Shown here: positions 41,226-59,545 of the stretch, one piece after another | Layout of the letters: every line of letters starts with the position of its first letter | How positions within the stretch are numbered: the stretch's first letter is position 1 | Source of the DNA: a virus | Lineage: Duplodnaviria > Caudoviricetes | DNA: 64,000 nt | Reading direction: 5' to 3' (one strand) | IMG/VR virus record: IMGVR_UViG_3300010965_000001 | Span: 1-64,000 of that record | Made by a program: the position numbers and the translations under genes | Notes under the pieces: model-generated | What the model was told of the DNA's origin: nothing | Databases searched by the model: none | The model's input: only the letters and a program-made list of their open reading frames with translations

Positions 41226-42506
41226 TTATTCCTCTATGATTAATCCACTTGATAGTTCTGTGTGTTGTGTTATTAAATGTTTATCTGAAATTTTTACCTT
41301 ACGTTCTATTTCTATTTTGATGTTGTCGTATTCGTATTCACCTATCTCATACGTTTCTACTACACCTGCCAAACTTCCAACCAATTCAAACAACGATTTC
41401 CAATTACAGTTGGTGGCGTCGATGGTCACTAATGCGTTGTATTCAAAATATGGACCGCTGAAGAAGATATTGAAATAGTTTGTTGTATTGTAAAATCTAC
41501 GTGATGCGTTCCACCCCTCCATTGATATGTCAAGTAACTGATTTGGTATTGTATCTTCCATTAACTGCGTTGAGTTGATAGCACCATCGTGGAATTGTGA
41601 ATCCAACCACACTTTAGTAAAGTATGGTTCAAGGTTCTGAATCAATGACCAATCCATCTTATCACAATTCAATATTCTAAGTGATACATCATACTTAGTC
41701 AATGGTGTATTGTGACTAAATGTTCCCCATTTACGAATGAACTTACGCATTTCGAATCCGTCAGCCTGTTCCTGTAACTTAACTCTCTCCTGTGCCTGTG
41801 TATTATTAGTATCGAACCAATCAGTTCCTCTTGAACTAACACATGTGAAGTGGTACACGTTGGCTTTGAATGTCTGTTTAATCTTAATGCCACTATGCAT
41901 GAACTTCTGTAAGATGTCACTATCTTCTCTTGACCTGCGGAAGATGGAGTCATGCCCTCCAACTGACTGCCATGTCTTCTTATGATAGGTGAAGGGTGCG
42001 AAGAAGTATTCTTCGGTTCTATCACTCTTTACAGTAGTTGCAAATTCCATATACCCATCCCAATCAAACTTGTCTGGTGTGATACCGAAGTCCCGTGTAA
42101 AGGTTATGGGTGAGGGTGGATGTAATGGTGGTTCCGTTCTCGTGGCACTCAATATACAATTCTCTTCAAGGTCTTCTAACACATTCAAGTCATAGTCCTT
42201 GCTTACAATCATGTCAGACTGTAAGAAACTAACGATGTCATATTTTGCAAGGTCTGTAAGTATATTCACATTCAACTGATAACCTACACATTGATTCGGA
42301 AACTTATGCGTGACAATCTTTAAATCAAAGAACTCATGCTTGACACTCTTTAAGTATTGATATGTGCCGTCATTGTCTCTGTCAATGAACACGATTATCT
42401 CATGGTGCTTATAATGGAGATTCTCTTGTAATGACTTCAACAACAACTTCGTATAAGGTAATGTGTTAGCACCTGTATTAGTTATAAAACTGATATGATT
42501 ATCCAT
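41226..42506 (-). CDS. glycosyltransferase family 2
   Basis: IIVFID..DGT, LQSDMI, REDSD. Confidence 0.8.
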   Translation of the reverse strand: MDNHISFITNTGANTLPYTKLLLKSLQENLHYKHHEIIVFIDRDNDGTYQYLKSVKHEFFDLKIVTHKFPNQCVGYQLNVNILTDLAKYDIVSFLQSDMIVSKDYDLNVLEDLEENCILSATRTEPPLHPPSPITFTRDFGITPDKFDWDGYMEFATTVKSDRTEEYFFAPFTYHKKTWQSVGGHDSIFRRSREDSDILQKFMHSGIKIKQTFKANVYHFTCVSSRGTDWFDTNNTQAQERVKLQEQADGFEMRKFIRKWGTFSHNTPLTKYDVSLRILNCDKMDWSLIQNLEPYFTKVWLDSQFHDGAINSTQLMEDTIPNQLLDISMEGWNASRRFYNTTNYFNIFFSGPYFEYNALVTIDATNCNWKSLFELVGSLAGVVETYEIGEYEYDNIKIEIERKVKISDKHLITQHTELSSGLIIEE

Positions 42507-43479
42507 TCAACGCCTCATTAATTTTCTTTAAGAATTCTTCTTCTGCGAACTTAGTGTAATTGTATTTTGCTTCTTCACAACACATCTTGAAGAACTCGGG
42601 ATTACGTTGTAACGTCCACGCCAAATCCTTTGCCTTCTGAACATCATCGACATCCACAGAGAGATTTGGGTGACAGATACGTTGTGTGTCTACCTTCTCA
42701 TTACCTATACAGGGGATACCGAAGTATGCACAGTTGAGACTGAACGTACCTGCCGCAACCGTGGGCATCATGTGGACTGCATACTTGAAGGATGATAGGG
42801 TCTTCATCCAATCCAACCATTCAAGTCGTGGTAAATGTGTAAGTCCTTCTATGTCAAATTCCTCTTGTCTCGCCGCATGAGACGAAGGAACATAGATACG
42901 ATTCACAAACTCCTGTGCTACGATGTAACTCTGAAAGCCACCATACCACCTACAGAAGTTACCACCAATGATTGTTTTGTCTTCTGTGACAGGAACTATG
43001 TCCTTCACTAAGTCTTCAATCATAAGGGTCGGCATGACGTAAGTCTTCTTATCAAACAGACCTGAATAGAAATTCCTATCAGTCTCATTGTGAACGAAGA
43101 TTCCATCGGAACTTACGATTGCGTTATTGTAATGGAACTGATTGATTATCTCATACTCATTGAAGAACCACGATGGACCTTCTTGTACGAAGAAGACCTT
43201 CTTGTTATGTTGTTTTAACTCTCCAACAAAGTCTTCTTGAAATAATGGAAGATACTTGTTAGGAACGTCCACCATCTTAGAACCAACTGCATTCAATGAC
43301 ACATCACCTTTGGGGAAGATGATGAATACAACATCAAAATCCTTGACACCATTGAAGTGTGTAATTGGATAGTGAACTGCATTGAGTGCCGCCATCCATG
43401 CAAACTCTGTTCTCATGTTAGTGTGATTCCTATAGACAGGACCACTAAATCCCATCTCTGTTAAGAATGCTATTTTCAT
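42499..43479 (-). CDS. glycosyltransferase-like (GT-B) protein
   Basis: AGTFSLNCAYFGIPCIG; context. Confidence 0.6.
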   Translation of the reverse strand: MKIAFLTEMGFSGPVYRNHTNMRTEFAWMAALNAVHYPITHFNGVKDFDVVFIIFPKGDVSLNAVGSKMVDVPNKYLPLFQEDFVGELKQHNKKVFFVQEGPSWFFNEYEIINQFHYNNAIVSSDGIFVHNETDRNFYSGLFDKKTYVMPTLMIEDLVKDIVPVTEDKTIIGGNFCRWYGGFQSYIVAQEFVNRIYVPSSHAARQEEFDIEGLTHLPRLEWLDWMKTLSSFKYAVHMMPTVAAGTFSLNCAYFGIPCIGNEKVDTQRICHPNLSVDVDDVQKAKDLAWTLQRNPEFFKMCCEEAKYNYTKFAEEEFLKKINEALNG

Positions 43480-44306
43480 TTATCCCTCAACTGATTGTAC
43501 ATTATTTTTAGTCCTTCACCTAATCCTATTAATGGAAGTGTTGGTAGTATGCTCGGGTGTGCCTCTCCGTAATATGACAACTCCACTCCGCCTCTGTCAA
43601 TCTTAATAGGACATCGATAATCACTCAACTGATTAATCACACCACAAATATCAGTCAATGTTATTTTATCCTTATAGACTGCATTCATTTCCTTTGATAG
43701 AAAGAATGGGTCGGAATGCATATAGTAACTTACGACAGTCATTAAATCATCAATGTAGAAGAAGTCCATGATTCTGTCCATATCAACAGTTAATGTGTCG
43801 TGGTTGATGTATCGTTGAATGTTTGTTTTGATGAACCGTGCAGTATCTTCATCGTGGGCAAACACATTGAACAATCTAATATTATAGAAATCATCAGTGT
43901 CTTCTATGATTCGTGCTATGAGATTTTTACTCATACCATATGGGTCAATTGGAAACGATGTAACAACTTTGTTACTAACATCTATGTTACGCCGCCGGTC
44001 CAACTCCGCCCCTGTTCCAAAATTGATAAACCGTTTGTAATATCGTCTATTGGTATAGAGATTGTTAAACATAGTAAGGTTATCTGCCAATACTTGATTA
44101 GTGTCTACCTTCGTACGTTTACCACCTGTTATAGCAGTGTGAAGAACCACATCAAATTTACCACTAATCTCAAAGAATTTATCGACATCAAATCCATTAG
44201 TCCAATCCAATTGGGAATGTGTCGGTGCGACCATTTCATGCTCACCGAAATATTCTTTAAGATGCCGTGCTATAAATCCATTACCGCCTGTTATGAGTAT
44301 TTTCAT
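43476..44306 (-). CDS. NAD-dependent epimerase/dehydratase (extended SDR)
   Basis: ITGGNGFIA, YGMSK. Confidence 0.85.
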   Translation of the reverse strand: MKILITGGNGFIARHLKEYFGEHEMVAPTHSQLDWTNGFDVDKFFEISGKFDVVLHTAITGGKRTKVDTNQVLADNLTMFNNLYTNRRYYKRFINFGTGAELDRRRNIDVSNKVVTSFPIDPYGMSKNLIARIIEDTDDFYNIRLFNVFAHDEDTARFIKTNIQRYINHDTLTVDMDRIMDFFYIDDLMTVVSYYMHSDPFFLSKEMNAVYKDKITLTDICGVINQLSDYRCPIKIDRGGVELSYYGEAHPSILPTLPLIGLGEGLKIMYNQLRDK

Positions 44307-44307
44307 A

Positions 44308-45060
44308 TTATCTCTTTCTAAAGACTGCCAAGTAATTGATTTCATTGGGGTCTAATATCAAATCAACTAATTCAAATGCTTCACTGACTTTCTTATTCAT
44401 ATCGTCATTTAAGAAACTTGAATTAAACTTTCCAGTAAAATGTGTCTGTATTAATTCCTCTCCAACCAATGAGTTGTCATATCTGTACTTACCACGGGAT
44501 TTGAATGGATTTTGAATATCTTCCATGAAATAATATCCACCACTCTTCACTAAATCGATGGACTGATATAACGTAACCATCATGTGATTCGGCCAGTGGC
44601 TTCCATCTTCTACTATGAAATCTAAGTCATGTGGTACACATTCTTTTATGCCCACCCAATCTGAGAATGAACCTTGGTCTGCGTAAATGAAATTCACACC
44701 CATTTGATTTAAGAACTCTACATCACCCATCTTATCATCAAGTGTGTTATTCCAAAAGTTGTCTACGGAATATAAATCTAAATCTGAGAAGAATCCTGTC
44801 CACATCTTGCAACTTGCATAGGGAAATCTGTTATCACATATACCAATCTCCATCATCTTAACAGGTGCATCCTTGTATTGATTCATATAACGTGCATACG
44901 TAGTGGTGTATTCCAAACAGGTATGTGTAGGATATTTCACTCCCCAAGAAGTGAGTGCCGCGGGAAATGTCCCCTTGTCGGATTCGTGTGCATTAGCCAA
45001 GTATGTCAAATCTCTCACACCAGCAAGAACGTTGGATTTAGTCTTTTGAAAAAATTTCAT
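44308..45060 (-). CDS. class I SAM-dependent methyltransferase-like protein
   Basis: MMEIGI, ADQ, IVEDGSH, GGYYFMED. Confidence 0.75.
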   Translation of the reverse strand: MKFFQKTKSNVLAGVRDLTYLANAHESDKGTFPAALTSWGVKYPTHTCLEYTTTYARYMNQYKDAPVKMMEIGICDNRFPYASCKMWTGFFSDLDLYSVDNFWNNTLDDKMGDVEFLNQMGVNFIYADQGSFSDWVGIKECVPHDLDFIVEDGSHWPNHMMVTLYQSIDLVKSGGYYFMEDIQNPFKSRGKYRYDNSLVGEELIQTHFTGKFNSSFLNDDMNKKVSEAFELVDLILDPNEINYLAVFRKR

Positions 45061-45061
45061 G

Positions 45062-46012
45062 TTATTTCCCTTTTAAATATTTGTTAATTAGTTTTTTCAT
45101 TCCAAGATGTGTACTCTCATACTCATCGTTTAATGTAATTGTTTCTATACCAGTTACGTGTGTAATGTATTCTTTTATAACAGGTAGTTTCTTACTGATT
45201 CCACCAGTCAAAAATATGTGTTCGAATATATCTGTATCAATTCTTCGAATGTATTGTGTAACGTATCCTTTTACAACTGATGCAATCATATTATCTACAG
45301 TAAAGTTGTCTTCGTGTATATTCTTAATGAACCCGCCACCGTTATACTCAACAGCCTGTTCAAATACATTCAAGTCAATTTCCAATGTAGAAGTTATAAG
45401 GTCGTTCACTGTCAACTTACTACACCTTTCAAAGAAATCTACACCCATCGATTGAAAGAATGAACTGAACATATTCAATGCTCTTCCGCTTGGAATGTAA
45501 CTTGTGATATTGTCAGTTGATATTACTTGTGAACCCGTTCCCATGTTAATTAACAAGTCCGTCTCCTCTAAGTCAACTGATTCTATAACACAATTGGTAT
45601 CACCCAATACACTATAGAACTTCACACCGTTGATATAACCAAGAACTTCCAACCCATCTACAATTGAATCTTTTGAATGATGTTTATGTATGTGATATGT
45701 CTCCTGCCCCCTAAAGAGTTCAGAGATTAAGCAACCTTTATAATTTGGATTTTGATACAGTGCCTTCCATGAATAATAAATATCATTCTCTGAGTAGGAA
45801 CCGCCTAAGATTGAACATATCACAACATTTTTTATGCGTGTATATTGTGCCAATACATGTAATAATGACCCAATCACATATCGTTTGGCAACAGAGTATT
45901 CCATGTGCAATGGAGATTGAAAACTCTTATAATTTGTTAAACTATCTGTATCGGAATCATACACTATACACTTAATGTATGATGCACCGTAATCAATTAG
46001 CAAGTATTGCAT
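45062..46012 (-). CDS. FGGY/sedoheptulokinase-like sugar kinase
   Basis: IDYGASYIK, GDTNC, INMGTGSQ, LTGG. Confidence 0.55.
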   Translation of the reverse strand: MQYLLIDYGASYIKCIVYDSDTDSLTNYKSFQSPLHMEYSVAKRYVIGSLLHVLAQYTRIKNVVICSILGGSYSENDIYYSWKALYQNPNYKGCLISELFRGQETYHIHKHHSKDSIVDGLEVLGYINGVKFYSVLGDTNCVIESVDLEETDLLINMGTGSQVISTDNITSYIPSGRALNMFSSFFQSMGVDFFERCSKLTVNDLITSTLEIDLNVFEQAVEYNGGGFIKNIHEDNFTVDNMIASVVKGYVTQYIRRIDTDIFEHIFLTGGISKKLPVIKEYITHVTGIETITLNDEYESTHLGMKKLINKYLKGK

Positions 46013-47015
46013 TGAGTCTCTCCACTAAGATGTCATCGAGTTTGGTTGGGAAAAAGTTCGTTACTCCTTCGTAACAGTTTACTAATTGTATTACATCACC
46101 AGCAACCTTCTTGTCACTTTTCAAATTGGACACAATCCCTACTGTGCTTAACTGTTTTATTTTACACAATGATGTAAACTTTAAACATGCTTCATTGATT
46201 ACTTCGTTGTTATCAAATAACTTATTGACAAGGAGGATTCCAAGTAATACAGCCTCACCATGTGGTATCTTATACTTTGTCATTGATTCAATCACGTGCC
46301 CAAACGAATGACCGTAATTCAGGGACTTTCTCAAATCTTCTTCGAATTCATCCTTCTCAATTACCAATCGTTTGATTTCAAGTGAATGTCTAATCACATC
46401 TTCAATTCCCCAATTACTGATGTTATTCAAGTAATAATTACCACCGATGGTAAACAACTTAACAATCTCACCATAACCTGACACCATATCTTCTGCTGTC
46501 AAAGTTTTAAGAAACTCTATATCGACTGTAACTTTACTTGGTGCGGAGAACAATGCCAATTGATTCTTATGATTGTCGAAGTTCAATCCAGACTTACCAC
46601 CAATACAACTGTCACACATCGACAATAGAGTGGTAGGATAGAACTCCCAATTAATTCCACGCTTGAACATTTTGGCTACGAATGCACCAATGTCTTGTGT
46701 TATGCCACCACCAATTACTATAAGTCTATTACTCTTAGTGAAACCCCACTCGGACAATTGTCCACACACCATTAGACATGTGTCCATTGACTTATTCTTC
46801 TCTAATGCTTTAATCTCAACAATCTTATCACATGATACATTGTAAAGATTCCCAACAGTTTGGTCTACTAATACAACACAATCGTCACCAAATGTTAAGT
46901 CCGCTCTACCAATCACAACATCGTAATTCTTTGGAAATGACTTAACAGTGAACTGTTTTTCAAGTTTTTGATTTATACGAAATATCGTGTCTTCAATCTT
47001 AAATAAATTGTGCAT
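45993..47015 (-). CDS. 3-dehydroquinate synthase / sugar-phosphate cyclase family protein
   Basis: IGGGITQDIG, PTTLLSMCDSCIGGKSG, LNYGHSFGH, PHGEAV. Confidence 0.85.
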   Translation of the reverse strand: MHNLFKIEDTIFRINQKLEKQFTVKSFPKNYDVVIGRADLTFGDDCVVLVDQTVGNLYNVSCDKIVEIKALEKNKSMDTCLMVCGQLSEWGFTKSNRLIVIGGGITQDIGAFVAKMFKRGINWEFYPTTLLSMCDSCIGGKSGLNFDNHKNQLALFSAPSKVTVDIEFLKTLTAEDMVSGYGEIVKLFTIGGNYYLNNISNWGIEDVIRHSLEIKRLVIEKDEFEEDLRKSLNYGHSFGHVIESMTKYKIPHGEAVLLGILLVNKLFDNNEVINEACLKFTSLCKIKQLSTVGIVSNLKSDKKVAGDVIQLVNCYEGVTNFFPTKLDDILVERLNAILAN

Positions 47016-47018
47016 GTC

Positions 47019-48752
47019 TTACTCCTTTGAAATGGTCATATCAGTTAATGTTCCAGGAATGATTTTACCATTTGCATCAATTCCTCTGTGAGTTACTTTT
47101 GGTTCGTGCTTTTCTGATGGGTTCACGAACACTTCGATTATACATGGTTTGTAGGATGTCATACTCTGCGACAATACACCGTCTACGTCGGCATTACTTT
47201 TAATACTGTAATAATCAATCCCAAACGCCTTTGCAATTTTTTCAAAACTTGGGAGTGAGACACCATTATCCTTGCCGCTTGCAAATTCAGCCCCACCGAA
47301 GAACGCACCCTGTGTAAGTTTAATGGACACATATCCATCGTTATTGACAATGATGATTTTGATTGGAAGGTTGTTATGTTTGATAGTTTGCAATTCCTGT
47401 AAGTTCATCATTATACTTCCATCACCTTCGATACATACTACTCTCATGTTGGATGCTTTACACGCGCCGATTGCTGCGGAGATACCGTATCCCATACTCG
47501 CACACCCCACATTGGTGTACAGTCGTTGACCTTTGTTTATGTTATATGTTTGTTGTGTCACTACATGTGCTGACCCATTACTTGTTACAATGGGAAGTTT
47601 ACCAAAATACTTTGGTGCTCTACTTATGAAATAATAGAAACTTGCAAATTGTTTTGGATGAATGTGTTGTGGATAACAATAAACCTGTTCCTTACGTTTA
47701 TCCTTGACATATTGTTGCCACTCACCAATTTGCAATGTTTCATTATCCATAGTAATATATGATAAGAACTCTTTCAAATCTGATGGGATTTTCAAATCTA
47801 TATGAAATTTATGTTTCATAATTTCAAATTCATCAATATCAACAATTATCTTCTTAGCGTTTGGTGCGAAGTCCTTTATATTATATCCAGTCATTTTGAA
47901 GTTTAACCGTGACCCTAAGATGATTAACAAATCACACTGTTGAACTATTTCGTTTGAAGTTAGTTGTCCATGAATTCCAATACGTCCTGCATAATATTCA
48001 TACGTATTGTCAATACAATCCACCGCAGAGTGTGGTCCAGTTACTGCGGGGATGCCTGTCTTCACTAACAAGTCGTTAAGTAAAGTGTAACTGTTTGACA
48101 GTCTCACTCCACTACCACACACTATTAACGGTTTCTTTGCATTGAGAAGTAATTTCTTAAATTTAACAATTTCACTTGGAAATGGTTTCATCACTCTAAT
48201 TACTTCCGTGAATCTATCTAACATCTCTTCATCTACATCTGCTCCTTGAATATCCAATGGAACGTCTATCCATACTGGACCCATTCTATCATGTAGTGCG
48301 ATTTGATACGCCTTCTCAAGTTCGTACAATATTCTACTCTTGTCTTTTATTGTCACACAATACTTTGTCATTGGAGCCGCCACCTTCACAATATTGAACT
48401 CTTGGTCACCGATTTGACGGCAACCAGTTCCTTCTGACAGTTGATTAGTGGACACCTGTCCAGAAATGACCATCGATGGGATACTATCTAACCACATCCC
48501 CAATAGACCTGTTAATGCGTTAGTGCCTCCAGGACCAGTTGTGATTACGTTGAGTGCCATCTTACCACTCTGACGGTAATACCCTTCAGATGCCATCAAT
48601 GCAGTTTGTTCGTGGTGAACACATGTCGTGTCCATCCCCTTTGCAAGTCGTAACGCGTCTATGAGATGAATACATCCACCACCTGAAACTGTGAATGCAT
48701 GGTCGATTTTCTTCTCTAAGAAAAACTTCATTATTAAGTCTGCTACTCTCAT
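47019..48752 (-). CDS. thiamine-diphosphate-dependent enzyme (acetolactate synthase-like, YerE-type context)
   Basis: HHEQ, TTGPGGTN, GCASMGYG, EGDGS..NN. Confidence 0.88.
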   Translation of the reverse strand: MRVADLIMKFFLEKKIDHAFTVSGGGCIHLIDALRLAKGMDTTCVHHEQTALMASEGYYRQSGKMALNVITTGPGGTNALTGLLGMWLDSIPSMVISGQVSTNQLSEGTGCRQIGDQEFNIVKVAAPMTKYCVTIKDKSRILYELEKAYQIALHDRMGPVWIDVPLDIQGADVDEEMLDRFTEVIRVMKPFPSEIVKFKKLLLNAKKPLIVCGSGVRLSNSYTLLNDLLVKTGIPAVTGPHSAVDCIDNTYEYYAGRIGIHGQLTSNEIVQQCDLLIILGSRLNFKMTGYNIKDFAPNAKKIIVDIDEFEIMKHKFHIDLKIPSDLKEFLSYITMDNETLQIGEWQQYVKDKRKEQVYCYPQHIHPKQFASFYYFISRAPKYFGKLPIVTSNGSAHVVTQQTYNINKGQRLYTNVGCASMGYGISAAIGACKASNMRVVCIEGDGSIMMNLQELQTIKHNNLPIKIIIVNNDGYVSIKLTQGAFFGGAEFASGKDNGVSLPSFEKIAKAFGIDYYSIKSNADVDGVLSQSMTSYKPCIIEVFVNPSEKHEPKVTHRGIDANGKIIPGTLTDMTISKE

Positions 48753-49792
48753 TCTATATCCTGTTTGGTTAGTGGTGAATCTGCCGATTTATCTTTATTA
48801 AGTACAAATCCTTCTAAAAAATCTCTTGATGTTAACTGACCGATTTCCGCTTGATATGGTATTGCACTATACAAGTCTATCAACTTCACCGACTCTCCTT
48901 TTACCATATCAGCGCGTAAATAGAATCCTCTATATAGATTCTCCAAATATTCAGATTCCTTAACATCAATAATTCTACGTGCCTGTGAAGAATTACCACA
49001 CATTGTTTGTGCGTATTTGAATGCTTTGAACCATTCATCAATTTGTTCAGGTTGTGAGCAGTAACTACTTACCATCTTCTGCTCACACTCACCCGCTTTG
49101 TATCGTATATCTACATGACGTTCCCATGTTCTCGCACCCTTTGCATATGAGATATTCATGGACGTTTGCCAATCATTCTTCTCATGTGTTGAAAATCCTA
49201 TTACGTGATTGGGATACCGATTCTTTAAGTAATCTATTTGATTCAGTTCTAACTCACTATCCTCACTCGGATACTTGGACACACAATGGTTGATTGCCAA
49301 AGGTATGTTTCGGTTTTCAAAGAATGCTACCGCGTCATCAATCTGTTTCTCACTTGCTCCACCTGTAGAGAATATGACAGGTTTCTCTGTTGCCGCGATT
49401 GCTTTTAACAATATCCAATCATTTATGTCTGAACTTGCAATTTTGATAATTGGAAGGTCTAAGTCTACACACAATTGAACTGACCGTTCATCAAAGGGTG
49501 TAGCCATAGGGATACAACCACACTGCCTAATATAGTCAACCAATTCTTCAATATCCCTGTCAAACAATTTAGTCTTAACAGTCTTTTGAATGTATCTGTC
49601 TGAATCTTTAGTAAAGTCAGAATGAACGAATGTTTCCACATCTCTAAATTGTAATTTGATTGCCGCCTTTACATTGTTATATCGAACTACTTGTGCAAAT
49701 TCTTTGATTATCCGTTTACCACGCTCCAAAGAACCCCAATGATTGTTTGCCATTTCAAGTATAAACAGATTTTCGAATATTTCATGTTCCAT
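48749..49792 (-). CDS. neuB: N-acetylneuraminate synthase (NeuB/SpsE) family protein
   Basis: EMANNH, AIKLQ, KIASSD, STGG, HCVSKYP, GFSTHE, ERHV. Confidence 0.8.
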   Translation of the reverse strand: MEHEIFENLFILEMANNHWGSLERGKRIIKEFAQVVRYNNVKAAIKLQFRDVETFVHSDFTKDSDRYIQKTVKTKLFDRDIEELVDYIRQCGCIPMATPFDERSVQLCVDLDLPIIKIASSDINDWILLKAIAATEKPVIFSTGGASEKQIDDAVAFFENRNIPLAINHCVSKYPSEDSELELNQIDYLKNRYPNHVIGFSTHEKNDWQTSMNISYAKGARTWERHVDIRYKAGECEQKMVSSYCSQPEQIDEWFKAFKYAQTMCGNSSQARRIIDVKESEYLENLYRGFYLRADMVKGESVKLIDLYSAIPYQAEIGQLTSRDFLEGFVLNKDKSADSPLTKQDIE

Positions 49793-49793
49793 A

Positions 49794-50102
49794 TTATTTC
49801 CAATCCCGCGTATTCATATTTTTATCATCGATGAATAAATCAAAATATGGTTTGTCAAATTTGAGTTCGTGATACTTGACTCCCCAATTACTTAATTGTT
49901 TCTTTGTTAGGTCAGACCAGTCAATTCCAGTCTTCTGTCCTCTTGCCGTCCAATATACAATGTGATGTCCTTTGTCATACAACTTATTAGCCTTTACTAT
50001 ATTCTCATTTATTGGACTACTAATTGTATAATCAGGTGCGTTTGGACTGTGACAAATTGTTTCATCAATATCAATGTATATTGTTTTTAATGTGCTGAGC
50101 AT
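49794..50102 (-). CDS. small HAD-superfamily phosphatase
   Basis: IDIDETIC, YWTARG, KPYFDLFIDDK. Confidence 0.8.
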   Translation of the reverse strand: MLSTLKTIYIDIDETICHSPNAPDYTISSPINENIVKANKLYDKGHHIVYWTARGQKTGIDWSDLTKKQLSNWGVKYHELKFDKPYFDLFIDDKNMNTRDWK

Positions 50103-50731
50103 GAATAACCTCCATCGATGATGAAGTTTTGTCCATTGATGAAGTCGTTATTATCACATAAGAAGAATACCATATCCGCCACTTCACTTGGTTGCCCCAA
50201 TCTACCAACGGGAATTTTGCCGATGAGTTCTTCAAGTTGTTCGTCAGTGTTATTCTTATACGTCATATCCGTGTTTATAAATCCAGGTGATACCGTGTTG
50301 CATAGAATATTGTGTTTACCATACTCTACAGCGATAGATTTTGTAAGTGCATGAAGTGCATTCTTACTCGCACTATATGCAAATCGATTTTGTTTTGCAA
50401 AGTCAATCCATACACTACCCATATTCACTATTCTACCATATTGGTTTAGCATCATATGATTTAAACATTGTTTAATTATTTGTGTGGGTGCATAGAAATT
50501 GACATCCATAGTTCTCTGTAAATCAAATCCTGTTGTCGCCATATCATTAAGTATGTTTACACCTGCGTTATTAACAATCACATCGAAATTCGTGTTTGTT
50601 AACTGTGGGATAACTGACAAGTTAAGTTCGTCACGGTTAGGAGCGTACACCTCATAACCGTTGGACGAAAACTTCTCTACAATCGCTTCACCGATACCTC
50701 TTGAACCACCTGTAACTAATACTTTTTTCAT
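50087..50731 (-). CDS. short-chain dehydrogenase/reductase
   Basis: TGGSRGIG, NNAG, YSASK, SPGFINT. Confidence 0.9.
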   Translation of the reverse strand: MKKVLVTGGSRGIGEAIVEKFSSNGYEVYAPNRDELNLSVIPQLTNTNFDVIVNNAGVNILNDMATTGFDLQRTMDVNFYAPTQIIKQCLNHMMLNQYGRIVNMGSVWIDFAKQNRFAYSASKNALHALTKSIAVEYGKHNILCNTVSPGFINTDMTYKNNTDEQLEELIGKIPVGRLGQPSEVADMVFFLCDNNDFINGQNFIIDGGYSCSAH

Positions 50732-51531
50732 TAATCCACCTTAATAGATTGGTTGATTCGTTCCTGTATCATGTGAATTCGTTTCAAATCTGCATCTGCA
50801 AATCCCATATAATGTTCACGTTTAACCATGAGCCATTCATACTCAAACATCTGTCCTTTTGCCAGTGCGGCTGGTAGATTCTTGAGTGCTACAGCTGGGT
50901 CATACATGACATAACGTGTTTCGAACTTGTCGAGTAATCGTTTTGAATGGAGACGGGACAAGAACGAATATGATTCCGTTGATACAGCGCCTCCAACACA
51001 CGCCTTTAATCCCTTTTCTTTTGCAAGAGTAAATACCTTCTCAGCCATATCAAATACAAATGGACTCTCAACAAAATTTCTATCTTCACCCAACGAAGAA
51101 ACAAGGTCAACTCTTCCCAACGTGATTCCATACAGTGAAAATATGTCATCAATTTCCATTATGTCTGCGATATTTTTAACAGCAGTCATAGTTTCAATAT
51201 TCACCAATAATTGAAGTGATGATACTGAATCTGGTGAAATATATTTCTTAACGGCACCAATGAACTTCTGAACCCCAAATGGAGATTCAACCATCGGTGC
51301 TACCAACCCCTTCACACCGATAATTGCGGAGTCTTGAATATCTCTGATTGCTTCAGGACCACCAATCTTCAACGTTATCTTCGTCTTTGCTTCGTTACAA
51401 ATCTGTTTAAGACGAACCACTTCGTTGAAGGTTGCACCTTCATCTTCGAAACTTGTCTTGATACCAACCATTCCATGATTTTCAACCAAGTCAGTCAGTA
51501 ACTCTACACATCTAAATTCTCTTTTGTTCAT
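50731..51531 (-). CDS. HpcH/HpaI aldolase / citrate lyase family protein
   Basis: PMVES, NIET, GRVDL. Confidence 0.75.
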   Translation of the reverse strand: MNKREFRCVELLTDLVENHGMVGIKTSFEDEGATFNEVVRLKQICNEAKTKITLKIGGPEAIRDIQDSAIIGVKGLVAPMVESPFGVQKFIGAVKKYISPDSVSSLQLLVNIETMTAVKNIADIMEIDDIFSLYGITLGRVDLVSSLGEDRNFVESPFVFDMAEKVFTLAKEKGLKACVGGAVSTESYSFLSRLHSKRLLDKFETRYVMYDPAVALKNLPAALAKGQMFEYEWLMVKREHYMGFADADLKRIHMIQERINQSIKVD

Positions 51532-52088
51532 AACTTTCTACTCCTTTTTAATTTAAAAATTTCAGGGTGTTTGTGGACGATTAATGCTACATCACCAGGA
51601 TGTACTGAATGTGGTGAATATGGTTCACATGTTTTTGCAAGTTCAGGAAATTGTGAACTAATTCCCAATATTAGATAAAAGTCCAACACTGAACAGACCA
51701 CCTCTTTTTTATTGAGTGGATTAACTTTTGCTCTCATATCATATCCAAGAAGTTCTCCAGCTCTACGATAAATATACCACGGAAGTTGAAGGAACCCATA
51801 CTGATGCTCCGCGTACAAATCATACAAATATGACACCAACGGAAGTAGTTGGTCTTGTGACATTCCAATCACTTCATACTCCTCATATTCCGATGTTAAG
51901 TCTTCTGTGATATGAGTTTCGGGTCCGATTGAAATTAAAATTTGCGCTTCATAAATTGACGGAATCCCAACGACATCACCTGCACCGATTGCACAATGGG
52001 TATAAGGGCATCCAGTAATCCACCGAATCGCCCATGATAAAAATCCACCCTTAGTGGAGTTGACAACTACTATATTTCCTACTTTCAT
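51528..52088 (-). CDS. permuted papain-like (YiiX/YebB NlpC/P60) enzyme
   Basis: THCAIG before VVCS; PYSPHSVHPGD. Confidence 0.6.
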   Translation of the reverse strand: MKVGNIVVVNSTKGGFLSWAIRWITGCPYTHCAIGAGDVVGIPSIYEAQILISIGPETHITEDLTSEYEEYEVIGMSQDQLLPLVSYLYDLYAEHQYGFLQLPWYIYRRAGELLGYDMRAKVNPLNKKEVVCSVLDFYLILGISSQFPELAKTCEPYSPHSVHPGDVALIVHKHPEIFKLKRSRKL

Positions 52089-52098
52089 AATTTCTCCT

Positions 52099-53052
52099 TT
52101 ACCACACAAATGTGTCTTTGTTATATTCTGTGATGTTCCACAACTCTTCGTCAAACTTAACTTTCGGACTCCATCCAAGTGCTCTCAACTTAGAATCATC
52201 GAGTGCATATCGAACGTCTTGCCCTGCCCTAACAACACCAAAGTTAACGTACGGTTCCCATTGGTCAGTTCCCTTCACAAGTTTTATAATCTTCGTAACT
52301 GTCTCCAGATTCGATTGTTCAAATCCTCCACAAATGTTATATATTTCATTCACAACACCCTTTTCTACAATCAACAAAACTGCATCTGCAGTATCTTGTG
52401 CATGTAACCAATTACGAACAGGTTTACCCATATTGTGAAGTGGAATCGGTTTATCCAACATCAAGTATTTACAAGCCTTTGGAATCAACTTTTCCACATA
52501 CTGCCCACACCCATAATTGTTTGTGGGACGAACTATCACGTACGGAATGCCATACGTTCTCGCATACGCGGTAATTAACATATCACCAGCGGCTTTGGTT
52601 GCAGAGTATGGATTGGATGGGTGGAGAATATCCAATTCCGTGTGTGCTCCAACTGCAATATCACCATACACTTCATCGGTACTGAAATGTAACAGAGTGG
52701 GAACCTTACCACTTTCTTGACGATAATTACGAATCAATTCTAACAGATGATGAACTCCACCAATATTTGAGTGGACAAAATCATCACTGTTGGTGATTGA
52801 ATTTCCTACATGTGTTTCAGCGGCACAGTTAATAACATAGTCACATTCATATAAGAATTTAAGGTCATTAATGTCCTCTTTCATAAATGAGAAATTTGGA
52901 TATTTACTCATAAACGATTTAATTAATTTTATATCGGCTGCGTAGGTACACTTGTCAACACCCATCACATACCAACCTTCATTGAGTAATGTCTCTGTTA
53001 CATATGAACCTATGAATCCAAGACATCCTGTTACGTATACTATTTTTTTCAT
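52099..53052 (-). CDS. rfbB: dTDP-glucose 4,6-dehydratase family
   Basis: GCLGFIGS, AAETHV, STDEVYG, PSNPYSATKA, EKLIP, DRWYALD-like DVRYALD. Confidence 0.85.
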   Translation of the reverse strand: MKKIVYVTGCLGFIGSYVTETLLNEGWYVMGVDKCTYAADIKLIKSFMSKYPNFSFMKEDINDLKFLYECDYVINCAAETHVGNSITNSDDFVHSNIGGVHHLLELIRNYRQESGKVPTLLHFSTDEVYGDIAVGAHTELDILHPSNPYSATKAAGDMLITAYARTYGIPYVIVRPTNNYGCGQYVEKLIPKACKYLMLDKPIPLHNMGKPVRNWLHAQDTADAVLLIVEKGVVNEIYNICGGFEQSNLETVTKIIKLVKGTDQWEPYVNFGVVRAGQDVRYALDDSKLRALGWSPKVKFDEELWNITEYNKDTFVW

Positions 53053-53660
53053 TATTCTCCTTTGTAATTAAAGAACTTCGTTGTCAACATATCTTCTCTT
53101 GCTGTATGTGCTGGATTGTAAATGTATGTCCATGCTCTCTCTAAGAAGTATGCCGTGAATGGATGTGTATACCACGGTAACTTGTCTCTTAGATTTTCCC
53201 AAAACCACTTAGGTTTGTTGTGAATGTATTCTTTTGGGACTGAGTACTGCGCCCCACAAGGAAATGCCACGCCGATGAAATTGCAATTGACCAATCCTTC
53301 CACAAATATCTGCGTGTCTTCACCTGCGGCTATGTAGATTCGTTTATCTGCCAGTGGTTGAAAACCCTTCTCATATCGTTTCTCATTAAGAAACTCAAGT
53401 GCCTTCTCATAGTGGTCGAACGGAAAGTCCTGCATGAAAATTGTATACTCTCTCAGTTCATCATAATATGTTGACGTATAATAGATGAAGGAATTATCCG
53501 TGACTCCAATATTAGGAATCGTAATACACTTGTATTTGGGATGCTCAGTCCATCTTCCCTTGTTAATGAGAACTATCTCAAGTTCATCATTGTCTATCTT
53601 ATCTAACCAATCCAAGTCTTTTTGGTATGCGGCTATTACTAATGTTGCTTTTGGTTCCAT
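53052..53660 (-). CDS. DUF3431-like glycosylation-associated protein
   Basis: VIAAY..LDWL, PFDH, GAQYSV, LERAW. Confidence 0.65.
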   Translation of the reverse strand: MEPKATLVIAAYQKDLDWLDKIDNDELEIVLINKGRWTEHPKYKCITIPNIGVTDNSFIYYTSTYYDELREYTIFMQDFPFDHYEKALEFLNEKRYEKGFQPLADKRIYIAAGEDTQIFVEGLVNCNFIGVAFPCGAQYSVPKEYIHNKPKWFWENLRDKLPWYTHPFTAYFLERAWTYIYNPAHTAREDMLTTKFFNYKGE

Positions 53661-53668
53661 GCTACTCC

Positions 53669-56318: not shown

Positions 56319-56328
56319 GTATAACCTT

Positions 56329-57201: not shown

Positions 57202-57202
57202 A

Positions 57203-58573
57203 TTAGTATGCCTTTACAAAATAATCTCGCATGAATCGTTCCACAACAACTTCAATGTAATCCAACTGTTCATCCGTAATTCCAGGATATACCCCGAGGA
57301 AGAATGAATCCAACGTTGACTTAGTTGCCACTGGAAATTCTCTTCTTGGATTTACATACTTGCTAGCTTGGTCAACGTACGCTGGATGAAGTAGTGCATT
57401 CCCCGTAAAGTACGAACGTGTCTGAACTTTCTTATGTTCGAACCACGACATCAGTTGGTCTTTTGTAAATGGTGATTCATCCTTAATCGTAAGAAGGAAT
57501 CCAAACCACGACACATCCGCCCCAAACTCCGCCAGTGGCATGTGGAGATACTTCCGATATGGATAGAATATTTCACACAACCTCGCGTGGTTCTTCTTTC
57601 TCTTCGCGTGCATTTCATCCAACTTGTCAATTTGTTCCAATCCAATTGCAGTCTGCATTTCAATTGGTTTTAAGTTATATCCGATTTCATCAAACACATA
57701 ACGATGGTCAAATGTTATATCGTCATGTCCCTTGAACCAACACTTAAACCGATTGCCACATGCAGTCCCATCGATGACATCACCAGGTTTGTTTGTATTA
57801 CAATGACATGCCCTACCCCAATCACGGAGACTTGACACGACTATCCGTTCCTTCATCGTGTTCACTCCAACGAACCCACCTTCACCCATTGTCATGTGAT
57901 GTGCTGGGAAGAATGAACAACTTGAAAGATGTCCAAATGACCCCAACACCTGCCCCTTGTACGTAGAACCAAGTGCATCACATGCATCTTCTAAGAATAT
58001 CAAATTGTATTCTTTGACAATTCTCATAACTCTATCCATGTCAGGAGGATTTCCTAAAACGTGTGCGAATATGATTCCTTTGATTTCTTTGGCAGTATCT
58101 AACTTCAAAACTGCTTCCACTTGGTCTAAGTCTAAATTCAAACTTGGAAGTGTGACATCTACGAAGACAGGTTCGAACCCATTCTGAATGATTGGATTGA
58201 GTGTTGTAGGGAAGCATAATACAGGTGTGATGAACTTCGAACCAACTGGAAGGTTATACAACCGTTTCGACTTCATTGCGGCGAGCATTAACAAATTTGC
58301 AGATGAACCTGAATTGACTACTACACCATCCTTCTTTCCAAGTTTCGGTGCGAACTTCGTTTCAAACTTACGTGCGGTCTCTCCCAAAATCAACCACTCC
58401 GATAGGAGAGATGTGATTGCGGCAGTGTATTCCTTCTCATTGAAGAACGGACCAGAATAATGAATCCAATCTTTACCAGCAACCCACTTCTTTGCCTTCT
58501 TTGTTTTGATATACGAACTTACAACTTTTAAAATGATTTTATGTTTCAACTTCTGAATTGTGTCATTAAACAT
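57203..58573 (-). CDS. rfbH: CDP-4-keto-6-deoxyglucose 3-dehydrase (RfbH/E1; DegT family)
   Basis: NSGSSANL, FPTT, EDACDALG, SFFPAHHMTMGEGG (His instead of Lys), RDWGR. Confidence 0.85.
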   Translation of the reverse strand: MFNDTIQKLKHKIILKVVSSYIKTKKAKKWVAGKDWIHYSGPFFNEKEYTAAITSLLSEWLILGETARKFETKFAPKLGKKDGVVVNSGSSANLLMLAAMKSKRLYNLPVGSKFITPVLCFPTTLNPIIQNGFEPVFVDVTLPSLNLDLDQVEAVLKLDTAKEIKGIIFAHVLGNPPDMDRVMRIVKEYNLIFLEDACDALGSTYKGQVLGSFGHLSSCSFFPAHHMTMGEGGFVGVNTMKERIVVSSLRDWGRACHCNTNKPGDVIDGTACGNRFKCWFKGHDDITFDHRYVFDEIGYNLKPIEMQTAIGLEQIDKLDEMHAKRKKNHARLCEIFYPYRKYLHMPLAEFGADVSWFGFLLTIKDESPFTKDQLMSWFEHKKVQTRSYFTGNALLHPAYVDQASKYVNPRREFPVATKSTLDSFFLGVYPGITDEQLDYIEVVVERFMRDYFVKAY

Positions 58574-59513
58574 TTTTATCTCCACGATATAGGATATTAT
58601 AAACTTTTTGGATTCCGTTAACAAAGTGCGTGAATTCAAAATTTGGAATAAGATTTACCATTTTATTAATACTTACATCTTTACGGTATTGACCGTCGGG
58701 ATATGTACTGTCATACCAAATATCCCAATCTTCATGCCCCAATGCCAATAGTGTCATTCGTGCTAATTCATCTATACTGAAATTTTGACCGACAGGGGCG
58801 ACATTGAAACTTTCAGTAATATCGTACTCAACCATATCTCCCAACACTCTCGCCAAGTCTCCAGCATACATAAATTGACGTAACGGCTTTCCAGTCCCCA
58901 TTAATTTAATAGTCTTATCTCCATACTCCTCAGCGCGCTGAATCTTTGATAGAAGTGCCGTCACAAAATGTGGTTTGTTAGCATTACGTCCGTAAATTAC
59001 GTCATACTCACTATAGAGATTGGAAGGTATTACGTAATTGTAGTTAGTTTTGTACTGTTGATTGTATGCGTCTATTTGAACTGCCATACATCGTTTCGCA
59101 TATCCATAACTGAAATTGGTTTCTGCTGGTGGTCCGAGATGTAAATCCGTTTCCACCATTGGATACTTGTCCATTACATCAGGATAGATGCATGTACTCA
59201 GTATACCAGTGAATCGTTCAACATTATATTTATGTGCGTACTTTACCATCAAAGTATTCATTAAAATATTTTGGTCGAAGAAGTCGGCTGGGTGCATCAT
59301 ATTATCCATGATACCACCAACTTTCCCCGCGGCGTGTATAATTCGTTGTGGACGATTTGCAGAAATCATATATTCGACATGGACAGGGTTTGTCAAGTCA
59401 AATTCTTCACCGAAATTGTCTTTGGTGACAAAAACGGCAGATGGGAACTGCTCGCGGAGATGTTTTCCCACCATGCCGTTCCCACCTGTTATTAGTAATT
59501 CGTTATCAAACAT
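58566..59513 (-). CDS. fcl: GDP-L-fucose synthase
   Basis: TGGNGMVG, AGKVGG, STCIYP, YGYAKR, GTGKPLRQF. Confidence 0.88.
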   Translation of the reverse strand: MFDNELLITGGNGMVGKHLREQFPSAVFVTKDNFGEEFDLTNPVHVEYMISANRPQRIIHAAGKVGGIMDNMMHPADFFDQNILMNTLMVKYAHKYNVERFTGILSTCIYPDVMDKYPMVETDLHLGPPAETNFSYGYAKRCMAVQIDAYNQQYKTNYNYVIPSNLYSEYDVIYGRNANKPHFVTALLSKIQRAEEYGDKTIKLMGTGKPLRQFMYAGDLARVLGDMVEYDITESFNVAPVGQNFSIDELARMTLLALGHEDWDIWYDSTYPDGQYRKDVSINKMVNLIPNFEFTHFVNGIQKVYNILYRGDKNV

Positions 59514-59545
59514 ATCAGAACCTATTAGTCTACTTGTATAATAAT

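Follow-up and report, generated by a model that had tools for sequence, protein, structure and literature searches.

The closest known system to the locus analyzed here is the caryophyllose sub-locus of the LOS cluster of Mycobacterium marinum (MMAR_2329–2336), together with the unifying scheme for long acyl-branched sugars exemplified by yersiniose (YerE/YerF), erwiniose (ErwE/F/I/J), and gastriose (MyGE) (Steitz et al., 2022, PMC9306805). The sub-locus encodes a DHQS-family protein (MMAR_2329), an aldolase (2331), a ThDP enzyme (2332), a GT2 glycosyltransferase (2333), RfbF (2334), RfbH (2335), and a CDP-glucose 4,6-dehydratase (2336). MMAR_2329 is annotated as a "3-dehydroquinate synthase family protein," and the real AroB of M. 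marinum is MMAR_2177. Caryophyllose is missing when 2331, 2332, or 2333 is mutated (PMC9306805; PMC5706390); the sugar is 3,6-dideoxy-4-C-(D-altro-1,3,4,5-tetrahydroxyhexyl)-D-xylo-hexose (PMC5706390). It contains no carbocycle, and positions 2' and 6' of the side chain lack oxygen, exactly the pattern left when a 3-deoxy-ulosonate loses its terminal phosphate. In the published scheme, no role is assigned to the DHQS-family gene, the kinase, or the partner SDR (PMC9306805). Our search found no open-access paper or preprint that describes a role for the DHQS-like enzyme, and no donor-arm enzyme assays in the open-access literature covered.

The window, a stretch of 64,000 nucleotides, is part of the 210-kb genome of an uncultured T4-like phage. 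Positions 43476–51531 of its minus strand hold nine translationally coupled genes, for an HpcH-like aldolase, an SDR, a mini-HAD, a NeuB-like synthase, an ALS-like ThDP enzyme, a DHQS-like protein, a trimmed FGGY kinase, a methyltransferase-like protein, and an extended SDR. Neighboring genes overlap or are spaced by 1–3 nt, so that they form a single operon; a scan for promoters and terminators yielded none above chance (71 found versus 75.5 expected). A short way upstream are genes for an RmlB-like 4,6-dehydratase and for RfbH. Each of the seven gene types that the preliminary description lists for this region is present at the stated position, and the RfbH that the description invoked is real, though encoded outside the span that it delimited.

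Table 1. Features of the phage sugar locus, in order of position
Feature	Coordinates	Strand	Basis or remark
GT2 glycosyltransferase	41226..42506	-	PF00535
326-aa protein	42499..43479	-	directly downstream of operon, with GT2
Extended SDR (RmlD/epimerase-like), 289 aa	43476..44345	-	PF01370, E 3e-20
Probable class I SAM-dependent methyltransferase, 250 aa	44308..45060	-	language-model neighbors
Trimmed FGGY-family sugar or sugar-acid kinase, 316 aa	45062..46012	-	hhalign
DHQS-like protein, TIGR04425 clade, 340 aa	45993..47015	-	PF01761 + PF24621
YerE-like ThDP-dependent carboligase, 577 aa	47019..48752	-	three TPP domains
NeuB-family PEP-dependent aldol synthase, 347 aa	48749..49792	-	PF03102, E 9e-40
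Minimal HAD-type phosphatase, 102 aa	49794..50102	-	DIDET (DxDxT) motif in sequence
FabG-like classical SDR, 214 aa	50087..50731	-	PF13561, E 4.5e-43
HpcH/HpaI-like (class II pyruvate) aldolase, 266 aa	50731..51531	-	PF03328, 46 bits vs cut-off 25
216-aa ORF from TTG, viral protein, between aldolase and dehydratase	51528..52178	-	
RmlB-like NDP-glucose 4,6-dehydratase, 317 aa	52099..53052	-	TIGR01181 291.8 bits (cut-off 365)
RfbH, E1-type PMP-dependent 3-dehydrase	57203..58639	-	NF011936 436.6 bits vs cut-off 423

The analysis establishes the identities of the phage genes, their family placement, and their conserved synteny, together with a parts list identical with that of the M. marinum locus. 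The phage operon shares with that locus and the acyl-branched scheme, into which it also fits, a YerE-like ThDP carboligase, an aldolase for a hydroxylated 2-oxo acid donor, RfbH with a 4,6-dehydratase for the 3,6-dideoxy-4-keto acceptor, a reductase, a gene of the DHQS family, and a neighboring GT2. The suggestion that the cluster does not obviously match a known pathway is therefore not borne out: synteny with a characterized pathway is what the preliminary description itself named as refuting it, although the pathway used for comparison is itself only partly characterized. The phage cluster differs from the M. marinum sub-locus in being phage-borne, in having a NeuB-type PEP synthase beside the HpcH-type aldolase, and in its shortened kinase. 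Its dehydratase is RmlB-like rather than of the CDP type, leaving the acceptor arm incomplete, and neither RfbF nor an E3 reductase or ferredoxin was found in the phage. Because caryophyllose has a 2',6'-deoxygenated open chain, the best reading of the operon is a phage form of a caryophyllose-type pathway to a 4-C-branched 3,6-dideoxyhexose, a rare sugar that bears a long carbon chain as its branch. We regard this reading as likely, and the cyclitol offered earlier as one option is not supported.

The core set of NeuB, ThDP enzyme, SDR, DHQS-like protein, kinase, and SDR genes, with the dehydratase and RfbH, is found on ∼30 IMG/VR contigs. The gene set keeps the same order in ∼30 viral and ∼19 cellular loci, mycobacteria among the latter, and this recurrence indicates that the arrangement is not due to chance. 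The FGGY kinase is encoded as well in two related loci of mycobacteria (L063 and L095).

The DHQS-like protein has the fold of AroB (TIGR01357; 3clh, 1xag, and 1dqs), with 3clh as its best PDB match (E 1e-34), but it lacks a shikimate context and has an obligate SDR partner. The preliminary description had set a plain dehydroquinate synthase against its own reading; the protein is not a plain AroB but belongs to a paralogous clade. It scores 211 bits against the aroB model (cut-off 305) and groups, in trees built with FastTree only, with the other proteins of such clusters, 119 in the clade; the true AroB that each of five cluster-bearing cellular genomes encodes separately falls outside it. 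The related statement that no other shikimate genes accompany it holds for DAHP synthase, the sole shikimate gene searched, which was not found in the 210-kb genome. The best family match of the DHQS-like protein is TIGR04425, [quoted passage not shown] an NCBIfam hypothetical equivalog with a cut-off of 400 bits. Cellular members of the same clade score 407–445 bits, whereas the phage protein (269 bits) and the viral clade are divergent. Most of the cut-off-passing members that we observed occupy another context, with a CMP-transferase, a GFO protein, a 2-hydroxyacid dehydrogenase, and an SIS protein.

All DHQS ligand and catalytic residues, for metal, phosphate, and carboxylate, are retained in the phage protein, which has family-specific residues at Q107, C137, G182, and W123. 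Two non-AroB paralogs of the DHQS family from cellular genomes, presumed cyclases, deviate from AroB at what we take, by motif, to be K250, R264, N268, and K356, one of them also at H275. The phage protein has the AroB residue at at least four of these five positions, which upholds the earlier impression that it looks DHQS-like and not like a sedoheptulose-7-phosphate cyclase. Sugar-phosphate cyclases belong to the same superfamily and share its NAD+/metal phosphate-elimination chemistry, but EEVS ValA (4p53, 82 bits), DDGS (5tpr, 62), and DOIS BtrC (2d2x, 66) are weaker PDB matches than DHQS (123 bits). Retention of the AroB residues, with loss on the carboxylate side in the two presumed cyclases, points to a DAHP-like acid as substrate. 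The protein is predicted to work as an NAD+/metal-dependent phospholyase whose substrate is a DAHP-like 3-deoxy-ulosonate phosphate. The FabG-like SDR groups by blast with the SDRs that in most related loci are encoded immediately upstream of the DHQS-like protein; this SDR cluster is present in 105 of 119 loci, at a median of -0.68 kb from the DHQS-like gene. The FabG-like SDR would reduce the keto group remaining after phosphate elimination.

The DHQS-like enzyme might instead be a true cyclase, turning a DAHP-like phosphate made by the NeuB-like synthase and the kinase into a dehydroquinate-like carbocycle, which the SDR would reduce to a carba-ulosonic acid or cyclitol that is either used alone or offered to the ThDP enzyme as its ketone acceptor. 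The full complement of conserved DHQS residues and the word "cyclizing" in the curated name speak for this, and in a second, mostly bacterial context the SDR and DHQS-like genes lie beside a CMP-transferase, an enzyme for which the tertiary alcohol of a quinate-like acid would in principle be a possible site of activation. The sequence likewise gives no sign of lost cyclization, which counts against an open-chain product; in true DHQS, ring closure after phosphate elimination reportedly needs little catalysis, as argued from the work of Bartlett and Knowles. However, ring closure would use up the 2-oxo group that a ThDP donor requires, the pair lies between the YerE-like and RfbH genes in ∼50 loci, and the phage has no CMP-transferase. 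The only such locus whose product is known, that of M. marinum, makes caryophyllose, with its open 2',6'-dideoxy chain and no carbocycle. We therefore consider cyclization unlikely; the DHQS-like enzyme probably makes the terminal methyl of the side chain rather than a carbon ring.

The ThDP enzyme has as its top PDB matches JanthE (8rph, 349 bits; PMC12188165) and PpYerE (5ahk, 264 bits), and the acetolactate synthase structure that is listed first, that of E. coli isozyme 1, scores 239 bits. It misses the cut-off of every acetolactate synthase equivalog and groups with the other cluster enzymes, 46 in all, in one clade separate from ilvB. These matches bear out the earlier proposal that RfbH acts with a YerE-type ThDP enzyme and a reductase. 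The enzyme would decarboxylate a 2-oxo acid and add the chain to C4 of an NDP-3,6-dideoxy-4-ketohexose. The extended SDR, which in 28 viral loci holds a conserved position immediately behind the kinase, is a candidate reductase of the side-chain C1' ketone by analogy with YerF and ErwF (PMC9306805).

On the acceptor side, the dehydratase scores only 62.6 bits against the CDP-glucose 4,6-dehydratase model and is 58%–71% identical to its viral relatives; cellular clusters carry true CDP-glucose 4,6-dehydratases instead (346–505 bits). RfbH has a PAHH motif in which His replaces the PLP lysine, and four Cys are conserved. Viral forms share an insert of 6–7 residues, and the true start of the phage gene is probably the ATG at 58573, after GGAG. 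RfbH is expected to yield the 3,6-dideoxy-4-keto acceptor. The ORF between the aldolase and dehydratase genes has no match in Pfam and NCBIfam searches and is absent from related loci. A language-model search with 189 of its residues returned hypothetical proteins from viruses, including some of the permuted papain-like C92 type, and the ORF probably lies outside the pathway.

Two enzymes could supply the donor. The HpcH-like aldolase shares a blast cluster with ThDP-adjacent aldolases of mycobacterial, Clostridium, Microcystis, and archaeal loci (34%–40% identity); MMAR_2331 is annotated with the same family. It may supply the donor of the side chain in the form of a 4-hydroxy-2-oxo acid. The NeuB-like protein, a TIM-barrel PEP aldol synthase, is 53%–68% identical among viral and cellular ThDP-context loci, and 36 of the 37 such loci that bear it also have the kinase. 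Assignment as NeuB (110 bits, cut-off 400), PseI (120, cut-off 340), or LegI was rejected. Its product would be a 3-deoxy-2-ulosonic acid; no CMP-transferase or CMP-ulosonate synthetase was found in the whole 210-kb genome, which argues that this acid is not activated as a nonulosonic acid. NeuB-type and HpcH-type enzymes swap at the same place in related clusters, a pattern that fits a shared role in providing the ThDP donor.

The trimmed kinase has no Pfam match above threshold when searched alone but aligns with the 420–446-aa cellular kinases at the same position (hhalign probability 100%, E 1.3e-42). Those carry FGGY_N, and among PDB structures they match a gluconate kinase best (3gbt, E 7e-30). 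This nearest solved relative is a sugar-acid omega-kinase, in favor of the caryophyllose-type reading. The mini-HAD weakly matches the capsule phosphatase family TIGR01689 (E 2e-4) and HAD_PNKP. No stretch other than its gene resembles cultured phages at the DNA level.

Kinase, synthase, and HAD phosphatase together form the known animal and Bacteroides route to Neu5Ac and Kdn, so that these three genes, acting in that order, could form a separate route of the Kdn or sialic-acid 9-phosphate type. Its ulosonic acid would be built in unchanged, and the ThDP enzyme would add no more than a short pyruvate-derived branch as in yersiniose. HAD genes do occur together with NeuB and the kinase in 13 loci; the mini-HAD itself is present in 13, of which 11 are viral, and a second HAD type adjoins the kinase in four (L040, L048, L068, and L104). 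Yet the NeuB and PseI cut-offs are missed widely, a CMP-activating enzyme is lacking, and pyruvate aldolases substitute in sister clusters. Since it also leaves the always-present DHQS-like/SDR pair without explanation, we judge such a route quite improbable. There is very little chance that sugar-modifying genes with no single pathway in common have merely been gathered as a mosaic in a phage glycan island, for although such islands are mosaic and the flanks vary between related phages, order and tight coupling persist across distant viral and cellular loci, and a plain dehydroquinate synthase boosting host aromatic metabolism, with which the intact DHQS residues would agree, conflicts with the missed aroB cut-off, the separate cellular AroB proteins, and the lack of DAHP synthase in the phage.

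Against the caryophyllose-type reading we count the TIGR04425 miss, the RmlB-like rather than CDP-type dehydratase, the failure to find a nucleotidyltransferase or E3/ferredoxin in the phage, the mini-HAD, which has no clear place, and the presence of both NeuB-type and HpcH-type aldol enzymes. In the pathway that we infer, including all its substrates, the order of kinase and aldol steps, the non-cyclization, the nucleotide carrier, and the biological target, host NDP-glucose would be converted by the RmlB-like dehydratase and RfbH, with a host reductase, to an NDP-3,6-dideoxy-4-ketohexose. In the donor arm, the NeuB-like synthase (with PEP) or the HpcH-like aldolase (with pyruvate) would extend a short aldose to a 3-deoxy-2-ulosonic acid, most likely of seven carbons, and the FGGY kinase would add its terminal phosphate, either ahead of the aldol reaction or following it. 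Next, the DHQS-like enzyme would apply the chemistry of DHQS, transient NAD+ oxidation and then beta-elimination of phosphate, the ring not being closed, and the partner SDR would reduce the omega-1 ketone to give a 3,omega-dideoxy-2-ulosonic acid with a terminal methyl. Decarboxylation of this acid by the YerE-like enzyme would place the chain on C4 of the keto-sugar, and the extended SDR would reduce the new C1' ketone.

The methyltransferase may decorate the product. It has no match in a Pfam search, and its language-model neighbors (0.92–0.95; Methyltransf_24 clusters, mostly viral) are a lead only; homologs occur in just two related loci (L002 and L010), which marks it as an accessory gene. 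GT2 homologs follow the extended SDR in L007, L018, and L023, and the GT2 and the 326-aa protein are candidate transferases for the operon product. Neighboring glycosyltransferases would attach the branched sugar to a host or virion glycan.

The nine genes at 43476-51531 all lie on the minus strand, with neighbours overlapping or 1-3 nt apart. A scan of the region for promoters and terminators gave no signal above chance, which is consistent with a single operon. Fucosyltransferase-like and GT2 glycosyltransferase genes and an Fcl-like gene surround the upstream dehydratase and RfbH genes, and the phage genes PhoH, a GP88-like protein, an amidase and an ATP-dependent ligase lie immediately downstream of the island. 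The window corresponds to the initial 64 kb of a virus record of 210,562 bp, which is rated complete by CheckV and includes a major capsid gene of T4 type (Gp23, E 4e-77). Given this capsid gene and the flanking phage genes, the region is a glycan island of a phage and not bacterial DNA.

Genes of the operon and the two upstream candidate acceptor genes
Feature	Position	Strand	Basis
HpcH/HpaI-like aldolase, 266 aa	50731-51531	minus	family search
FabG-like SDR, 214 aa	50087-50731	minus	family search
HAD, 102 aa		minus	DIDET motif
NeuB-family synthase, 347 aa	48749-49792	minus	family search
Three-domain ThDP enzyme, 577 aa	47019-48752	minus	family search
DHQS-family protein, 340 aa	45993-47015	minus	family search
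Kinase-like protein, 316 aa	45062-46012	minus	homology to cellular FGGY kinases
250-aa protein	between kinase and extended SDR	minus	no family match; methyltransferase-like by language model
Extended SDR, 289 aa	43476-44345	minus	family search
RmlB-like 4,6-dehydratase	52099-53052	minus	TIGR01181 292 bits; CDP-type model 63 bits
RfbH	57203-58639 (longest ORF)	minus	NF011936 436.6 bits, cut-off 423

The glycan island extends a further 13-15 kb (window 53052-64000, then 64001-66339 of G000; locus L133), and this extension holds GT2/GT10 fusion and GT11 fucosyltransferase-like genes, a DUF3431 protein, one Fcl-like gene and GT4-like genes. No Gmd was seen in the window; several related phage loci carry both Gmd and Fcl. 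Between the aldolase and the dehydratase, 51528-52178 encodes a protein of unassigned family (ORF of 216 aa, of which 189 aa were used as query). Its language-model neighbours are clusters of hypothetical viral proteins that include permuted papain-like (C92) amidases, and it has no counterpart in any related locus. The HAD gene provides the region's only nucleotide-level similarity to cultured phages (window 49821-50006; 69-73% over ∼190 nt to Synechococcus phages Bellamy and S-SM2). Its counterparts there are labelled hypothetical or “phosphoheptose isomerase,” the latter apparently a mis-annotation of a HAD.

Metagenomic homologues of the DHQS-like protein number in the thousands, the best 120 at 51-60% identity. 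Scanning viral contigs with the single sequence gave no match; alignment-based scans with the family returned 38 IMG/VR loci and more than 550 places in cellular genomes, 80 of which were kept for analysis. Neighbourhoods were compared across 119 loci, in which crudely called ORFs were clustered and mapped. The arrangement that includes the window, context A, is found in 34 viral loci (window counted) and 19 cellular loci, and runs through dehydratase and RfbH, a NeuB-like or HpcH-like aldolase, ThDP enzyme, SDR, DHQS-like protein, kinase and extended SDR. About 30 IMG/VR contigs carry the cluster, and relatives overall number about 50. The partner SDRs fall into one blast cluster (SDR cluster 1), with a member in 105 of the 119 loci; in the window this gene lies three genes upstream of the DHQS-like gene. 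In 28 viral loci the extended SDR at the other end of the operon occurs at the conserved place, and it is a candidate for a YerF/ErwF-type enzyme that reduces the branch ketone. When the 50,697 deposited phage records were searched at the DNA and protein levels, no relative of the module turned up; the sole matches were of ∼30% to ilvB/aroB, in contaminated or bacterial-like records, and the 190-nt HAD match in the two Synechococcus phages.

A different conserved cassette surrounds the SDR-DHQS-like pair in context B, which is mostly bacterial (among related loci L042-L119, for example L051:9259-11077, L061, L086 and L106). It comprises a GFO/MocA oxidoreductase, a 2-hydroxyacid dehydrogenase, a SIS isomerase-like protein, a CMP-type cytidylyltransferase, a different HpcH aldolase, DUF386, a putative cyclase and an MptE-like protein. 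By its gene content, context B seems to encode a so far undescribed route to an ulosonic acid that is CMP-activated and probably omega-deoxy. Locus L041 (RGCF01000194.1, a 5.6-kb “Bacteroidetes MAG” contig) is nearly identical to the viral locus L002 in its DHQS-like and ThDP genes (branch lengths about 0.005-0.02) and probably represents a piece of phage DNA that ended up in a bacterial MAG bin. Among cellular proteins, the one closest to the window's DHQS-like protein (60% identity) is encoded at locus L040, a 51-kb Cyclobacteriaceae MAG contig, and this may be a hint that the phage clade infects Bacteroidota. The L040 genes show a duplicated arrangement (NeuB-SDR-DHQS-kinase-SDR-NeuB) with no recognisable ThDP gene; upstream are two proteins of ∼530-540 aa, and the one checked (541 aa) has no NCBIfam match.

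The ThDP enzyme resembles YerE. Its best PDB matches are 8rph (349 bits) and 5ahk (264 bits), the latter presumably PpYerE, and the first listed acetolactate synthase (ALS) structure, E. coli isozyme 1, scores 239 bits. 8rph is JanthE, a YerE-like enzyme (PMC12188165), and PpYerE is the other solved YerE-like structure (PMC12247030). The protein misses every ALS equivalog cut-off. In a FastTree phylogeny excluding two mycobacterial rows with branch lengths of 1.8-3.0, probably wrong-frame ORFs from a high-GC genome, the 46 cluster ThDP enzymes form a single starred 99* clade, to which neither the ilvB of four genomes nor other paralogues belong. The preliminary description had paired a YerE-type ThDP enzyme with RfbH, and both assignments hold, the latter by a score above the NF011936 cut-off. 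RfbH, an E1-type 3-dehydrase (RfbH/DdhC), would make the 3,6-dideoxy-4-keto acceptor. It has His where the PLP lysine would be and keeps four Cys; in the viral forms, an insert of 6-7 residues separates the third Cys of the Fe-S motif from the fourth. Its longest ORF, with a TTG start at 58639, has a 74-nt overlap with the upstream gene. The true start is probably the ATG at 58573, because it is preceded by GGAG and its 456-aa product overlaps by only 8 nt (ATGTTTAA-type).

Cellular clusters have both a CDP-glucose 4,6-dehydratase and a glucose-1-phosphate cytidylyltransferase (DdhB/DdhA). The phage dehydratase is RmlB-like and the cellular ones are CDP-type, so the nucleotide carrier may differ. 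Domain searches of the 210-kb phage genome found no sugar nucleotidyltransferase (NTP_transferase) and no E3-type reductase or ferredoxin (NAD_binding_1, Fer2); the phage would need a host reductase as partner of E1, in the DdhD/AscD role.

The DHQS-like protein reaches 211.4 bits against the aroB model TIGR01357 (cut-off 305) and 268.9 bits against TIGR04425 (cut-off 400), missing both, and cellular members of the clade pass the latter at 407-445 bits. A true aroB separate from the cluster is present in five of the cluster-bearing cellular genomes, and all 119 cluster DHQS-like proteins form a 99* clade excluding those five AroBs (FastTree, local support values only). Within it the window protein belongs to a subclade dominated by viruses and associated with the ThDP context, with the Cyclobacteriaceae MAG contig as sister. 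These results speak against a plain dehydroquinate synthase, a possibility raised in the preliminary description, and the phage genome, moreover, has no DAHP synthase. We rejected plain AroB on these scores and this tree.

Active-site residues are nevertheless retained. Equivalents of R130, D146, K152, N162, E194, K197, K250, R264, N268, H271, H275, H287 and K356 are conserved, in what we take to be DHQS numbering, assigned by motif; Q107, C137, G182 and W123 are specific to the family. The K197 equivalent is His rather than Lys in the context B proteins. As a control, we compared two non-AroB DHQS-family paralogues, from Microcystis and Mucilaginibacter, presumed to be sugar-phosphate cyclases. 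They differ from AroB at K250, R264, N268 and K356, and the Microcystis paralogue also departs at H275; the paralogue pairs across the five positions are H/M, S/D, D/A, H/P and R/T, and the window protein has K, R, N, H and K, as in AroB. ValA and DDGS structures score below DHQS as matches to it. Retention of the AroB residues at all five positions bears out the earlier view that the pattern is DHQS-like, speaks against a sedoheptulose-7-phosphate cyclase (EEVS/DDGS/EVS), which we rejected, and favours an acidic, DAHP-like substrate over sedoheptulose 7-phosphate. Our searches found no relevant literature linking dehydroquinate synthase with LOS, YerE, NeuB or O-antigen.

The 316-aa kinase is a trimmed homologue of the 420-446-aa cellular FGGY kinases found at the same position (hhalign probability 100%, E 1.3e-42), whose nearest solved relative is gluconate kinase. 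For the aldol step that would supply a hydroxylated 2-oxo acid donor, the operon offers both the HpcH-like aldolase and the NeuB-type synthase as candidates. The NeuB-like protein misses both specific models (PseI, 120 bits, cut-off 340; NeuB, 110 bits, cut-off 400), and the aldolase shares a blast cluster with aldolases adjoining the ThDP gene in mycobacterial loci. Among context A loci, which are not phylogenetically independent, a kinase is present in 36 of the 37 having NeuB and in just 3 of the 11 of HpcH type; the window locus alone holds both aldol enzymes. The 250-aa protein, by its language-model neighbours, resembles viral class I methyltransferases, which we take as a lead only. Three other assignments were rejected: a mycosporine-like route with DDGS and an O-methyltransferase (methyltransferase not conserved, ATP-grasp absent), a phosphonate pathway (PEP mutase absent, ThDP enzyme three-domain) and a CMP-nonulosonic acid pathway (CMP-transferase absent).

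Mycobacteria and plant pathogens display long acyl-branched sugars such as caryophyllose, gastriose and erwiniose as surface antigens, and the synthesis of the side chains of these sugars is just partly known. Steitz et al. 2022 (PMC9306805) proposed a single scheme for them, in which an aldolase furnishes a hydroxylated 2-oxo acid, a YerE-like ThDP enzyme joins it to CDP-3,6-dideoxy-4-keto-glucose and a reductase completes the branch. They tested ErwE, MMAR_2332 and MyGE, assumed 4-deoxytetrose as the aldehyde, and cite MMAR_2331, 2332 and 2333 mutants that lack caryophyllose. Dihydro-2H-pyran-3(4H)-one served as an acceptor in their work, and the 2331 and 2332 mutants accumulate LOS-II*. In the RefSeq annotation of the Mycobacterium marinum locus (PMC12395582 supplement), MMAR_2333 is a GT2, MMAR_2335 is RfbH and MMAR_2336 is a CDP-glucose 4,6-dehydratase; a DHQS-family gene lies within the locus, and the housekeeping AroB is MMAR_2177. 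The mycobacterial loci L063 (Mycolicibacterium rhodesiae) and L095 (Mycobacterium ahvazicum) keep the M. marinum gene order and add an FGGY kinase. Caryophyllose is 3,6-dideoxy-4-C-(D-altro-1,3,4,5-tetrahydroxyhexyl)-D-xylo-hexose (PMC5706390); its side chain has no oxygen at C2′ or C6′, and the sugar contains no carbocycle.

We therefore read the operon as probably a phage form of a caryophyllose-type pathway to a 4-C-branched 3,6-dideoxyhexose. A 3-deoxy-2-ulosonic acid would be built from PEP or pyruvate, which accounts for the 2′-deoxy position. The DHQS-like enzyme would carry out NAD+ oxidation two carbons from the phosphate-bearing carbon, β-elimination of the phosphate and reduction back, and such chemistry on a terminal phosphate accounts for the 6′-methyl. 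The partner SDR would reduce the leftover ketone to the 5′-hydroxyl, the ThDP enzyme would take the intact 2-oxo acid as donor, and the extended SDR would reduce C1′; the kinase may act on the aldose or on the acid. In a variant yielding the same donor, the pair would turn tetrose 4-phosphate into 4-deoxytetrose before the aldol step. Retention of the carboxylate-binding residues favours phosphate loss after that step.

Ring closure by the DHQS-like enzyme is an unlikely alternative: the protein bears no sequence mark of having lost it, but closure would destroy the 2-oxo group required by the ThDP enzyme and would conflict with caryophyllose, the only known product of such a locus. Kinase, NeuB and HAD might instead make up a Kdn-like ulosonic acid route, which we consider quite improbable, as no CMP-activating enzyme (CTP_transf_3) is found in the 210-kb genome and the DHQS-like/SDR pair would be left unexplained. 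A mosaic of unrelated genes, or plain AroB, is contradicted by conserved synteny, scores and tree and is highly improbable.

Compared with the known cases, the caryophyllose-type cluster of the window is phage-borne, uses a NeuB-type synthase and a trimmed kinase, alone holds both aldol enzymes, and has the Cys-motif insert in its RfbH. Cellular clusters combine RfbF with a true CDP-glucose 4,6-dehydratase; the window's cluster has the RmlB-like kind of dehydratase and relies on the host for NDP-glucose and the E1 reductase. We found no relevant literature joining yersiniose with phage.

More tentatively, and with slightly less than even confidence, we propose that the DHQS-like protein and its SDR are a general device for deoxygenation by phosphate elimination, converting the terminal CH2-OPO3 of a 3-deoxy-ulosonic acid to CH3 without ring closure. 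It would serve two widespread glycan pathways, one to long-branched dideoxyhexoses and the other to an undescribed CMP-activated acid, and a T4-like phage lineage would have acquired it, together with a trimmed kinase and a NeuB-type synthase, for the production of such a sugar in the course of infection. A non-cyclising device of this kind, if real, would add a new outcome to the reactions of the dehydroquinate synthase superfamily.

Considered with its ∼50 relatives, the locus would assign the DHQS-like gene, its SDR partner and the FGGY kinase, conserved and hitherto unexplained, to side-chain synthesis. In viral genomes, it also helps to keep these genes from being wrongly assigned to shikimate, branched-chain amino acid or sialic acid metabolism. 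The entire predicted donor arm is encoded by large uncultured phages, which need the host only for NDP-glucose and a reductase; this suggests that they use a very unusual sugar to remodel a glycan of the host or the virion.
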